This document shows positions 9,871 to 14,050 of a stretch of 64,000 nt of DNA, piece by piece. The stretch is from an uncultured Acidobacteriota bacterium (lineage in GTDB: Bacteria; Acidobacteriota; Thermoanaerobaculia; Gp7-AA8). How positions within the stretch are numbered: the stretch's first letter is position 1; each line of letters starts with the position of its first letter. The translations under genes were made by a program, and so were the position numbers. Where the stretch lies: contig CAWGHO010000002.1 in assembly GCA_963822445.1 (NCBI GenBank), positions 32,001 to 96,000 of the forward strand, read 5' to 3'. The notes under the pieces were generated by a model. The model made no database searches. It was given only the letters and a program-made list of their open reading frames with translations, and had not been told where the DNA came from.

Positions 9871-11616
9871 ATGAAAGCCGTCCTGTCGAGCCGCTCTAAT
9901 CTCACCTCCTCCAAAGCGCCGACCGGGATCACCGGGCTGGATGAAATTACCGGTGGAGGCCTTCCTCGGGGCCGCACGACGCTGCTCGTCGGAGGATCGG
10001 GATCGGGCAAAACGATCCTCGGCACTGCAGTTTCTCGTTCACGGCGCGAAAGAGTGCGATGAGGCCGGCATCTTTGTCGCGTTCGAAGAGACGCCGTCGC
10101 GAATCGTCGTCGAACGCTGAAACGTTTCGGATGGGATCTCGAGGACCTGCAGAAAAAGAACCTGTACTTCATGGACGCGCAGCCCGCGCCCGATCTCGTA
10201 CAGTCCGGAACGTTCGATCTCAGCGGTATGCTCGCCGCACTGGGCGCGAAGGTCGAAGAAATCGGCGCCACACGCATCGTCTTCGATGCTTTGGACATCA
10301 TGCTGGCGCTGCTGGTCGATCCGACCGCGCAGAGACGCGAGATTTACCGGCTCCATGCCTGGCTGCTGCAGCACGAGCTCACGGGCATCATCACCTTGAA
10401 GGCCGACAGCGACGAGACCGGCTCCGTCAAACAGCCGTTCGGCTTCATGCAGTTCATGGTCGATTGCGCGGTCATCCTCAATCACACCGTCGTGCTCGGC
10501 GTGTCCCAGCGCAACCTGCGCGTCCAGAAATACCGCGGCTCGAGCTTCGATGAAAACGAGTCGCCGTTCCTGATCGGCAAAGGCGGATTCGAAGTCGCCG
10601 TAACCCGAACCCTCGGCCGCGGCGACGCCGAAGTGACGAACGAGCGCGTATCGAGCGGCGTCGCGCGCTTGGACACCATGCTCGGTGGCGGCTATTACCG
10701 CGGTGCTAGTGTGCTCATCACCGGCTTTCCCGGAACTGCGAAAACAACGCTGAGCGGTGCTTTCGCGGAGGCTGCCTGCGCGCGCGGCGAGCGGACGATG
10801 TTCGTCAGCTTCGATTCCGATTCCAACGAAGTAATCCGCAACCTCGGCTCGGTAGGCATCCAGCTCAATCGCTTCGTCGAGGACGGGACGCTGCACATGG
10901 TTTCCGCCCGCACAATCACCGGAAGCGCGGAAACCTACCTCGTGCGCATCAAGACCCTCGCAAAAGCGCATCGCGCGCGTTGCCTGGTCGTCGATCCGGT
11001 TTCGACACTATCGAAATCCGGCAATGAACTGACGGCACACAGTGTCGCGGAACGGCTCATCGACTGGTCCAAGGCCGAAGGAATCACTCTTGTCTGTACA
11101 AGCCTGCTCGATGAGATGTCCAGTCAGTCCGAAGCCGGCTCGCCTCTGCAGATTTCGACACTGGCCGACACCTGGATTCATCTCAATTACCTGGTACAGG
11201 CCGGTGAGCGCAATCGCGGCATGTCCATCATCAAGTCCCGCGGAACGGCGCACTCCAATCAGGTGCGCGAGCTGATTCTCAGCGACGCCGGAATTACAGT
11301 CACAGACGCGTACACGGCCGGCGGCGAAGTGCTCATGGGCACAATGCGCTGGGAAAAGGAAAGCGCCGAGCGTCATGCCTGCGAAATCGCGACGGTCGAG
11401 GCAAAGCTAAGAAGCGTGAAGCTGGAAGCCGAGGAGGCAGAGCTCGAAGCGCGGGTGAAGTCGCTGCAGGTCGAACTGGCGGCCAAGCTCACGGAGAAAG
11501 CGGTCCTGGCGCGAAGTGCTGAGGTTCACGAGCAGGAGTTGCTGCTGGGACGCGACAGAATGCGCGAGTTGCGCGGCAGCGACGTCACGTCAGAGGCTCT
11601 GAGTGTGTCGCGATGA
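9871..11616 (+). CDS. kaiC: circadian clock protein KaiC homolog; three +1 indels at about 10021, 10111 and 10125
   Basis: CI Walker A GSGSGKT. Removing three single bases gives ALQFLVHG...VAFEET...FGWDL in frame with ORF 10171..11616. Also KYRGS, a CII domain, and the ST phosphosite pair in QISTLADTW. Confidence 0.88.
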
Positions 11617-11963
11617 TCCCAGAGATCTTCACGTTCCGGCTGTACGTCTCCGGTGATGCGCCGAATTCATTGCAGGCCATCGCCAACCTGACCCAGCTCT
11701 GCGAGACGCATCTTCCCGATCGTCATCTGATCGAGATCGTCGACGTGCTGCTCGATCCGAAGCGCGCGCTGACTGAAGCGATTTACATGACGCCGACGCT
11801 GGTCACCGACTCGCCCTATCCCGGCCATCGCATCGTCGGCACGCTCAGCAACACCGAGCCGATCCTGCAGATCCTCGGCCTCGGCGCCGCACAACGGCGT
11901 GTCTTCCCGGGCCTCAAAGACCGGGATTCCGCGCCGCAATTGCGGACGGTCAGCGAGACGTAG
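11613..11963 (+). CDS. kaiB: KaiB homolog
   Basis: FRLYVSG..PNSLQAIANL...IEIVDV...TPTLV...P...IVGTLS. ATGA overlap with kaiC. Confidence 0.92.
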   Translation: MIPEIFTFRLYVSGDAPNSLQAIANLTQLCETHLPDRHLIEIVDVLLDPKRALTEAIYMTPTLVTDSPYPGHRIVGTLSNTEPILQILGLGAAQRRVFPGLKDRDSAPQLRTVSET

Positions 11964-12042
11964 CGAAGAGCGGTCGTGTCATGAACGGCAGGATGGCGAT
12001 CTTGAGATTCAGCCCGATCACGCTGAAGAGATCCGCCGCAGG
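11950..12042 (-). pseudogene. C-terminal fragment of the gene whose N-terminal part lies at 13643-14050
   Basis: Manual translation gives PAADLFSVIGLNLKIAILPFMTRPLFATSR*, which matches the recalled C-terminus (ADLF...L..K.AILPF) of that conserved hypothetical family. Confidence 0.55.
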
Positions 12043-12044
12043 GA

Positions 12045-12086
12045 CGACGAGAGGCCTCCGGCGGGCCGGCCCGTGGCCGGCCCGCC
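12045..12086. repeat. left part of a REP-like palindrome interrupted by IS110 (right part at 13626-13642)
   Basis: Rejoining the flanks gives a perfect hairpin: gacgagaggcctccggcgggccggcc-cgt-ggccggcccgccggaggcctctcgtc. Confidence 0.9.
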
Positions 12087-12195
12087 TATAGCTTGTCCGG
12101 CCGTCTCTCCGCTTCTCCCTCAGCCCTCAGAGAAGTACCCGTTGGGTGGCAATCGGGAGAATCGGGTTCAGGCGGCGCGATACTGAGAAGAAGGG

Positions 12196-12338
12196 TTCGT
12201 CCCGCTACGAATTCCGCCCGTGTTCGGATCGACGAATCCCTCCGGACTTTCGAGCGGGACGAAGTGCTTTGGCCCGAAACGCATTCTCAGATGCTGTCGG
12301 AGCACGACTCGACTATAGGCCTTGCGCGCGGCCAAAGC
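12196..12338 (+). ncRNA. IS110 bridge RNA (target-binding and donor-binding loops); the true 5' end is probably nearer 12100
   Basis: Two stem/internal-loop/stem modules whose loop strands match the target flanks (CCGCCCG, CCTCCGG) and the donor junction (CTCAGATG, CTATAGG). Confidence 0.82.
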
Positions 12339-12358
12339 CAACCCGAAGGGAGGGTGTG

Positions 12359-13603
12359 ATGAGCGAGTTCGAGTTTGGGGCGTTGGTGGGACTGGATTGG
12401 GGTGACACATCGCACGAGGTGGCTCTTTGGGACGAGCAACAGCAGACGTGCACGAAAGAGCGCATCGAGCACACGCCTGCGGCTCTGCGCGCATGGATCG
12501 AAGCGCTGCAGGTGCGCTTCGGCGGGGCACCGATCGCCGTGGCCATCGAGCAGTCCCGCGGCGCGGTCTTCGACGCGCTCAGCGGCTATCCGTTCGTCAC
12601 GTTGTATCCGATCAACCCACGCAGTGCAGCCCGGTATCGTGAGGCGTTTCATCCGAGCCTTTCGAAAGACGATCCGACCGACGCGGCGTCCTTGCTCGAC
12701 CTGCTTCGTAAGCACCGCAACGAGCTGCGCCCGTTCATCGCCGACGACGCTTCTACGCGTCTGCTGCGGCTTCTGACCGAGGATCGGCGGGAGCTCGTCG
12801 ATCAGAGGACGCAACACGTCCAACGCATGACCGATCGGCTCAAGACGTACTACCCGCAGGCGCTCCGGTGGGCCGGCGCGTTGATTACGGCGCAGGCCTG
12901 TGACTACCTCGAACGCTGGCCGACGCTCGAGGCCATCCAAAGGGCTCGGCCGTCCGCGATAAGGAGGTTCTATGAGCGTTATCATCACGCGGCCGCGTGG
13001 ATCGACCAGAAGCTCGCCGAGATCCGTTCAGAGGTCGCGTTCCACGACGATCAGGTCACCACTGACGCTGCCGTGCTGCTGATCGGAAGCGAGGTTGCGC
13101 AGATCCGGGCTCTCAACGCGAGCATCGCCACGTACGACCAGAAGATCTCGGCGGCGTTCGCCGCCCACCAGGACGCGTCGATCTTCGCGAGCTTCCCTGG
13201 CGCCGGCCAACAGCTCGCGCCGCGGCTCGCCGCCGCCTTCGGGACCGATCGCAAGCGCTTCGGCAGCGCCGTCAACGTCGCCACCCGAAGCGGCATCGCC
13301 CCGGTTCTCCGCCGGAGCGGCAAAACGGCGGTCGTACACATGCGCTGGGCTTGTCCGAAGTTCCTGCGTCAGACGTTCCATGAGTACGCCCGCGTGTCGA
13401 TCGGTCAGTCCCTATGGGCTCGAGCCTTCTACAAGCAGCAACGCGCGCGCGGACACAGCCACCACGAGGCTATCCGCACGCTCGCTTACCGCTGGATCCG
13501 CGTCCTTTACGCCTGCTGGAACAATCGCACCGTCTACGACGAAGCTCTCTATCTGCGGCAGCTCGCCACCCGAGGCTCAACCCTCGCCACAGCTGCTCCC
13601 TGA
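12359..13603 (+). CDS. IS110-family transposase/recombinase (DEDD RuvC-like plus Tnp20 domain)
   Basis: GLDW, AIE, KDDPTDA, PGAG and GIAPVLRRSG (catalytic Ser). RBS GGGAGGG. Confidence 0.95.
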   Translation: MSEFEFGALVGLDWGDTSHEVALWDEQQQTCTKERIEHTPAALRAWIEALQVRFGGAPIAVAIEQSRGAVFDALSGYPFVTLYPINPRSAARYREAFHPSLSKDDPTDAASLLDLLRKHRNELRPFIADDASTRLLRLLTEDRRELVDQRTQHVQRMTDRLKTYYPQALRWAGALITAQACDYLERWPTLEAIQRARPSAIRRFYERYHHAAAWIDQKLAEIRSEVAFHDDQVTTDAAVLLIGSEVAQIRALNASIATYDQKISAAFAAHQDASIFASFPGAGQQLAPRLAAAFGTDRKRFGSAVNVATRSGIAPVLRRSGKTAVVHMRWACPKFLRQTFHEYARVSIGQSLWARAFYKQQRARGHSHHEAIRTLAYRWIRVLYACWNNRTVYDEALYLRQLATRGSTLATAAP

Positions 13604-13604
13604 C

Positions 13605-13610
13605 TTGACA
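13605..13610 (+). promoter_or_regulatory. -35 box of the IS circle-junction promoter
   Basis: TTGACA lies 17 nt (including the CC core) from TATAGC at 12087-12092 only when the two ends are joined. Confidence 0.75.
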
Positions 13611-13642
13611 GGAAGGCTCAGATGTCCGGAGGCCTCTCGTCG

Positions 13643-14050
13643 CTGAGCTGCGCGATCATCGCGCGCGCGCTCCACGACTTCCACGGTCGTCAGCGGAATC
13701 GCTCTGTGTCCGCGCGACGTCTCGCGCGATTGCCACGCCGCCTCCTGCCCCATCGTCGCCATCAGCGTGAGGCAACGAACCTCCGGTGCGAGTGGTTCGT
13801 CCCCTGCGGCCGCTCGTGCGAACGCTCGCGACTCCTGATCAAGATCGTCATACGGAACGGTCCTGAAAAACCGCACCAGCGCACATGCCGGCTTACCGGA
13901 GTCGTCAACCAACTCGTCGTAGAAAAAGTGAACGACGCGCTCCGCCGCCTCGGACACAGTCGCCGGAGGCGCGTCGTCGAACAGACCACGAACGCGCGTC
14001 CGGCAATCCATCATGTCGGTGAAACCGAACGTGCGGAGGCGATAGGGCAT
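13643..14050 (-). pseudogene. N-terminal part of a conserved hypothetical protein, truncated at the palindrome/IS110
   Basis: ACALVRFF.T.PY..L, CLTL.AT.G, W.SR..SRGH.AIPL, then MIAQL (after a 1-nt shift) running into the palindrome. Confidence 0.7.

Follow-up and report, generated by a model that had tools for sequence, protein, structure and literature searches.

An intact IS110-group insertion sequence in an uncultured Acidobacteriota bacterium, with a left end that very probably encodes a bridge RNA

The window, by which we mean the whole 64-kb stretch of DNA that was analysed, carries at 12087-13625 what we regard with high confidence as an intact insertion sequence of the IS110 group whose untranslated left end encodes a bridge RNA (12196-12338). 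The features of the element, of its RNA and of its target site are collected in Table 1. Just upstream of the element lie two plus-strand open reading frames (10171-11616 and 11613-11963), which by eye we take to encode a KaiC-like ATPase and a KaiB-like protein, respectively. A search of the window's own genome returned nine full-length copies of the element with 96-99% identity, plus fragments, and the alignment of the junctions among the nine full copies gives an element length of 1539 bp. All nine copies read ...GCCCG-CC-TATAGC...CAGATGT-CC-GGAGGC..., with the CC core at both junctions and always within the same target word. Insertion is thus site-specific, with the same 2-nt core on either side and without a long target duplication. 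Read directly from the sequence, the element ends (TATAGC... and ...CAGATGT) are not inverted repeats. The layout is that of the IS110 group, with a left end much longer than the right end and the RNA located in the left end. A preliminary description of this DNA had proposed the same left end, right end and CC core, and these are correct because the nine copies share the same junctions. A 17-bp inverted repeat (12046-12062 / 13628-13644) was also considered as the pair of element ends and rejected, as the comparison of the nine copies identifies it as the outer stem of the target palindrome.

Table 1. Positions of the features of the element, its RNA and its target site in the window
Feature	Position	Strand	Remarks
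Left part of REP-like palindromic target (outer arm, inner GC hairpin, left target)	12046-12084	+	
7-nt left target CGGCCCG	12078-12084	+	
Left CC core dinucleotide	12085-12086	+	CC at both junctions, 9/9 copies
Non-coding left end, 272 nt	12087-12358	+	
TATAGC, right donor sequence and putative -10 half of circle-junction promoter	12087-12092	+	
Variable leader within left end	12093-12195	+	
Target-binding module	12196-12263	+	Basal stem 11+4 bp
Left target guide	12214-12220	+	Core positions 12221-12222 (U, G)
Target-module inner hairpin	12223-12236	+	
Right target guide	12239-12245	+	5 nt plus GG for the core
Target-loop handshake bases AC	12246-12247	+	
Donor-binding module	12266-12338	+	Basal stem 9+2+4 bp
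Left donor guide	12286-12293	+	C12294 mismatched; core positions 12295-12296 (U, G)
Donor-module inner hairpin	12296-12308	+	
Right donor guide	12313-12319	+	
Donor-loop handshake bases CC	12320-12321	+	
Ribosome-binding site GGAGG	12349-12353	+	
Recombinase gene, 414 aa	12359-13603	+	Pfam, profile and NCBIfam matches
Non-coding right end, 22 nt	13604-13625	+	
TTGACA, putative -35 half of circle-junction promoter	13605-13610	+	
Left donor sequence CTCAGATGT	13617-13625	+	
Right CC core	13626-13627	+	Comparison of 9 copies
Right core (13626-13627), right target GGAGG (13628-13632) and outer palindrome arm	13626-13644	+	

The variable columns among the nine copies are unevenly distributed along the element. 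The RNA shows 1 variable column out of 143 compared to 82 out of 1396 elsewhere (Fisher p = 0.005), with 9 out of 109 in the leader and 72 out of 1245 in the coding region. Two rearranged loci were also observed. At G000:C1:940359-941429 (loci L011 and L013) two partial element copies are arranged head to head, each with its right end pointing outward into one arm of a shared palindrome, which suggests that each arm received an insertion and that the inner portions were lost afterwards. At G000:C3:469301-470839 (loci L010, L012 and L014) a copy displays an internal inversion of ~ 168 bp in the recombinase gene with short TCGAA-type inverted microhomology at the breakpoints, which could alternatively be an assembly error.

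The gene downstream of the RNA encodes a protein matched by Pfam PF01548 (4.2e-28), the DEDD RuvC-like N-terminal domain, and by PF02371 (5.1e-11), the C-terminal Tnp domain. Its predicted catalytic residues are D13, E64, D105 and D108 for the DEDD set and S320 in the Tnp domain, and the open reading frame is intact in all nine copies. The NCBIfam equivalog model NF033542, named 'IS110 family RNA-guided transposase', is passed narrowly (141.8 bits vs a cut-off of 140). In a single-sequence search of solved structures IS621 was not reached at E 0.001 or better and ISCro4 (PDB 9t56) was the sole match, at E 2e-4. With a profile built from 12 orthologues, the IS621 transposase 8wt6 is matched at E 1.8e-15; all five residues align with the catalytic residues of IS621 and are invariant in the 12 orthologues, S320 being aligned with S241 of IS621 in a ..SG.. 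motif (IS621 residue numbers taken from PMC11208158).

All nine insertions are found in one arm of a REP-like palindromic repeat, which exists either as a simple hairpin, the form of the window's copy, or as two arms ~ 110 bp apart. GC-rich palindromes of this REP-like type were also noticed at 12039-12081 of the window and at many sites of the genome (loci L015-L030), often as inverted arms separated by ~ 110 bp. All nine occupied sites have the left target placed within a short GC hairpin, on its 3' arm, and this hairpin remains paired from site to site despite a variable sequence. An unoccupied target copy is present beside the element on the minus strand (12055-12068), and the genome holds 41 unoccupied NNGCCCGCCGGAGG sites (target word NNGCCCG-CC-GGAGG) compared to 0.86 sites expected from base composition, a figure calculated for one exact 14-mer variant. 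Occupancy shows no significant preference for the sequence that matches the left target guide perfectly: 3 of the 11 CCGCCCG sites are occupied and 6 of the 38 CGGCCCG sites (Fisher p = 0.40).

The segment 12196-12338 folds into two modules, each made of a stem and an internal loop, with a minimum energy of -62.1 kcal/mol and a z of -3.77, and none of 200 shuffled sequences folds as well. Both basal stems that had been pointed out earlier, the target stem 12196-12206 / 12253-12263 (UUCGUCCCGCU / AGCGGGACGAA) and the donor stem 12266-12274 / 12330-12338, are present in the minimum-energy fold. As read from the sequence, the 5' loop strand of the first module repeats the 7 nt to the left of the insertion and its 3' strand complements the core plus the 5 nt to the right. 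The left target guide, CCGCCCG, matches the left flank CGGCCCG at 6 of 7 positions, as first described, and in the three of the nine genomic copies whose flank is itself CCGCCCG the match is 7/7; the right target guide, CCTCCGG, is the exact reverse complement of CCGGAGG at 13626-13632 (7/7). Similarly, the 5' loop strand of the second module repeats the right end of the element and its 3' strand complements the core together with the 5 nt that open the left end. Indeed, the left donor guide CTCAGATG is identical to 13617-13624 (8/8) and the right donor guide, CTATAGG, is the reverse complement of CCTATAG at 12085-12091 (7/7). The left donor guide is followed by one mismatch, absent from the preliminary description, in which C12294 faces donor T (13625); this is donor position 7, reported for IS621 to be the most mismatch-tolerant one (Durrant et al., PMC11208160).

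The pairing of the guides with the core differs between the two sides of each loop. Both right guides pair with it through GG. In both left guides, CC is faced by U and G: the U against the first C (12221 and 12295) had been read correctly before, and the G leaves the second core position unpaired. Pairing with the core dinucleotide, expected of all four guides in an IS621-type bridge RNA, was found for the right guides and not for the left ones; in IS621, pairing with both core strands is described as 'strongly preferred' (PMC11208160). The U at the first core position of the left guide is common to one close orthologue (L033). As regards the handshake, for which in IS621 the two bases 3' of each right guide come to pair, once strands have been exchanged, with the other DNA at positions 6-7 (PMC11208158), the two bases that follow the right target guide here, AC, are complementary in sequence to donor GT at positions 6-7 (13624-13625; 2/2). 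In the donor loop, CC set against target CG fits at one of two positions (position 7).

The chance occurrence of such matches was estimated from 200,000 random 143-nt windows of the genome. The four guide words were found at frequencies of 0.015, 0.0003, 0.0006 and 0.035, with a product of ~ 9e-11, and seven of the random windows contain all four words; these are presumably the element's own copies. For the RNA of the element, Rfam gave no family at E 1 or better. One Rfam match to a Burkholderia sRNA, on the opposite strand inside the coding region, was rejected as chance-level.

A scan of one genome per species provided 75 related loci. Six of them encode proteins with 82-89% identity and come from metagenome-assembled genomes labelled Thermoanaerobaculia or Longimicrobiales, and the remaining ones, with 37-53% protein identity, are spread over several phyla. 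In the six close orthologues the donor loop strands and the donor-side inner hairpin are invariant and the substitutions cluster in the target guides and the intervening hairpin. A soil-metagenome contig (run X4) carries an RNA variant that differs mostly in the left target guide and the inner hairpin (12214-12235) and resembles the close orthologues L031 and L036. A covariance model was built from seven sequences, those of the window and of the six close orthologues, using the stems only. With this model, 63 of the 75 related loci give a full-length match immediately 5' of the recombinase gene, and the 64-kb window as a whole gives a single one. In the resulting alignment of 45 rows, which was fitted to the covariance model and therefore leans towards the modelled structure, 92.8% of the cells pair and both partners have changed in 33 of the 39 base pairs. 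Covariation scores 0.627 compared to 0.18 for shuffles, none of 500 of which reaches 0.627, and slid partners give at most 0.093. On this alignment the RNA is conserved as two modules of stem and internal loop through compensatory changes.

Covariation between guides and flanks across the orthologues, the check that had been proposed with the preliminary description, was then examined. The left junction was placed by the right donor guide alone and the right junction by the left donor guide alone, so that the host flanks are independent of the comparison. For the left target guide, an average of 5.6 out of 7 positions agree with the element's own flank (49 elements) and 2.8 with the flanks of others (1685 pairs). 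For the right target guide the averages are 4.7 out of 5 with the own flank (51 elements) and 2.5 with the flanks of others (1717 pairs). Each control pair combines a guide with the flank of an element that has a different guide. Three registers were allowed in scoring the left guide because its register shifts by one base in some lineages, and the controls were scored likewise. The orthologues fall into 39 guide families and their right target guides are diverse (GGAGG, ACGTT, ATGCC, GGCGT, GCCAG, CTCCC, CTATT, TGTTA, GCGGA, GTTCG), each fitting its own site, with a 5/5 match in 40 of the 51 elements. Low scores were obtained for 8 of the 49 left flanks (4 or less) and for 4 of the 51 right flanks (3 or less). 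Together, the conserved two-module structure and the guide-flank covariation support the IS621-type bridge-RNA architecture that had been put forward for this locus.

The core was compared across the orthologues as well. In 60 of 64 rows the core read from the donor loop is met again in the target loop where it is expected; with four offsets accepted, the test is a weak one. As for the handshake, the base that faces donor position 7 can pair with it in 22 of 23 families. Among the 14 families with a trusted register, the left guide matches the first core base in 11 and the second one in 5; weak pairing at the second core base is thus a trait of the clade. In gammaproteobacterial orthologues (L062-L064, L075, L083 and L089) the left junction reads CT and the right junction reads GT at the matching place, which means that this subgroup has either another core or another register.

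The sequences at the two ends of the element also bear on how the RNA and the gene may be transcribed. In a circle, TTGACA of the right end would sit 17 nt from TATAGC of the left end. All 21 distinct reconstructed junctions show TTGAC(A/G/T) at 17-18 nt from TA(T/C)AG, except that one of them (L086) has TGGACG instead of TTGAC(A/G/T). A promoter would thus be rebuilt across the circle junction, as described for the circular form by Durrant et al. (PMC11208160). A scan of the integrated copy predicted no terminator, and no promoter on the plus strand. On the minus strand, inside the donor loop (12341-12312), it picked up a promoter-like match (TTGGCT, 18 nt, TATAGT), which probably arises because the right donor guide mirrors a -10 box. 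The circle-junction word is absent from the genome assembly, and four soil-metagenome contig sets returned fragments of related elements, with no joints, empty site or circle junction among them.

Such absence is in keeping with the possibility that the bridge RNA is real and the lineage now inactive, the U at the first core position of the left guides being disabling and the copies fossil. That the first core base is matched in most families with a trusted register and not in the window's element, and that the copies differ by 1-4%, would fit with this possibility as well. However, all nine copies, at nine different sites, carry the same U-bearing RNA, so that, assuming no gene conversion among the copies, the element moved with that RNA. 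Moreover, the nine open reading frames are intact, no part of the element varies less than the RNA, and a U can form a wobble pair with the G of the bottom strand. We therefore consider an inactive lineage improbable and retain the reading of an intact element with a bridge RNA.

It could also be argued that the structured leader is only a cis-regulatory 5' UTR, acting for example in translation control, and that GC-rich repeats incidentally give rise to its matches with flanks and ends. Indeed, the RNA ends 20 nt before the start codon, no terminator is predicted and the left-guide word is common in this GC-rich genome, being found in 3.5% of the random 143-nt windows. However, the three rarer words each occur in no more than 1.5% of these windows and, across the 39 guide families, the guides covary with unrelated flanking host DNA, which makes this explanation very unlikely; a role as a UTR and a role as a bridge RNA are in any case not mutually exclusive. 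Least credible of all is that the end-sequence copies inside the element function at the DNA level, i.e. as subterminal protein-binding repeats, rather than as RNA guides: the donor-side words are indeed exact internal repeats of the element ends and subterminal repeats are known in the IS1111 group (PMC11208160), but the target-side words match host DNA outside the element and the surrounding stems stay paired via the both-side changes described above, which points to selection on the RNA fold.

The sequence evidence supports the model established for IS621, in which a circle is excised, a promoter is assembled and recombination is bridged by the RNA, here with a palindrome arm as target. By analogy with IS621, the element would excise as a circle, and circularisation would bring the -35 box of the right end within 17 nt of the -10 box of the left end across the core. 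From the joined promoter, expression of the recombinase and its bridge RNA would then be switched on. The recombinase, as a tetramer, would keep the circle junction bound to one of the RNA loops and SSGCCCG-CC-GGAGG in the palindrome arm bound to the other; the putative catalytic serine (S320) would cut beside the core and strands would be exchanged, leaving the element inserted with CC on both sides.

The closest known system is IS621 of E. coli, consisting of a recombinase and a 177-nt bridge RNA (PMC11208160; Hiraizumi et al. 2024, PMC11208158). As in IS621, the RNA is encoded in the left end and has two internal loops, the left guides are in top-strand sense and the right guides complement the top strand, core included, with handshake bases 3' of the right guides and a 2-nt core flanking the inserted element. 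The promoter appears to be split across the circle junction in both, the target is a repeated palindrome, and the protein has the DEDD residues and the catalytic serine. In contrast, the protein is 414 aa long here whereas the solved IS621 chain has 328 residues (about 85 fewer), and a profile was required for IS621 to be matched, the single-sequence search having found no match to it at E 0.001 or better. The core is CC here and CT in IS621, ~ 109 nt separate the left end from the first module here, and the right target guide has 7 nt compared to 4 nt in IS621, a length that is inside the range of 4-7 nt published for the 3'-side guides of orthologues (Durrant et al. 2024, PMC11208160). Finally, the left guides here wobble at best with the first core base and are unpaired at the second. 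Among these differences, only this poor fit of the left guides to the core is a notable departure from IS621.

ISCro4 / IS622 (Perry et al. 2025, preprint 10.1101/2025.05.14.653916; PDB 9t56) belongs to the same family and is described with the same guide logic, a 14-nt recognition and handshake bases. The protein match to it is weak (E 2e-4), and activity has been shown for ISCro4 whereas the element described here is known from its sequence. [quoted passage not shown] The left target here likewise lies in the 3' arm of a paired GC hairpin at 9/9 sites; the role of the hairpin was tested according to the ISPpu10 work, whereas here the hairpin is an observation that is inseparable from the palindromic nature of the repeat. 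The IS1111 group shares the recombinase family and the RNA-guided principle (PMC11208160), but its guide RNA lies in the right end whereas the RNA here is upstream of the gene in the left end.

The preliminary description had presented the protein as a new, potentially reprogrammable RNA-guided recombinase with 7-nt right guides. What stands of this novelty is that it is an uncharacterised orthologue, because NCBIfam already names the family 'IS110 family RNA-guided transposase', and a 7-nt right target guide is not new because 4-7 nt have been published for orthologues (PMC11208160). Furthermore, bridge RNAs have been predicted for 85.7% of IS110s (Durrant et al. 2024, PMC11208160). The element is a well-supported further example of the system described in 2024 and not a new kind. 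By analogy, its recombinase may be reprogrammable.

The weak pairing of the left guides leads us to one further suggestion, which we put forward as possible though rather doubtful, namely that the core is recognised by the right guides and the handshake bases and that the GC hairpin around the left target serves as a second, structural check of the site. If core reading did fall to the right guides and the handshake, the division of labour in this clade would differ from that in IS621, and naturally long right guides together with several cores (CC, CT, AT, GT and others) would be available for engineering.

The finding leaves the understanding of the mechanism unchanged. It adds a fully annotated natural bridge-recombinase system, with its ends, core, guides, handshake bases, putative promoter halves, predicted catalytic residues and target repeat, which is far from IS621 in protein sequence. 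In this genome it explains a local structure, the family of REP-like palindromes being the landing sites of the nine element copies. At the level of the family, the clade to which the element belongs, with ~ 39 guide families that have different targets and cores, is useful for comparing guide geometry and possibly for picking orthologues.
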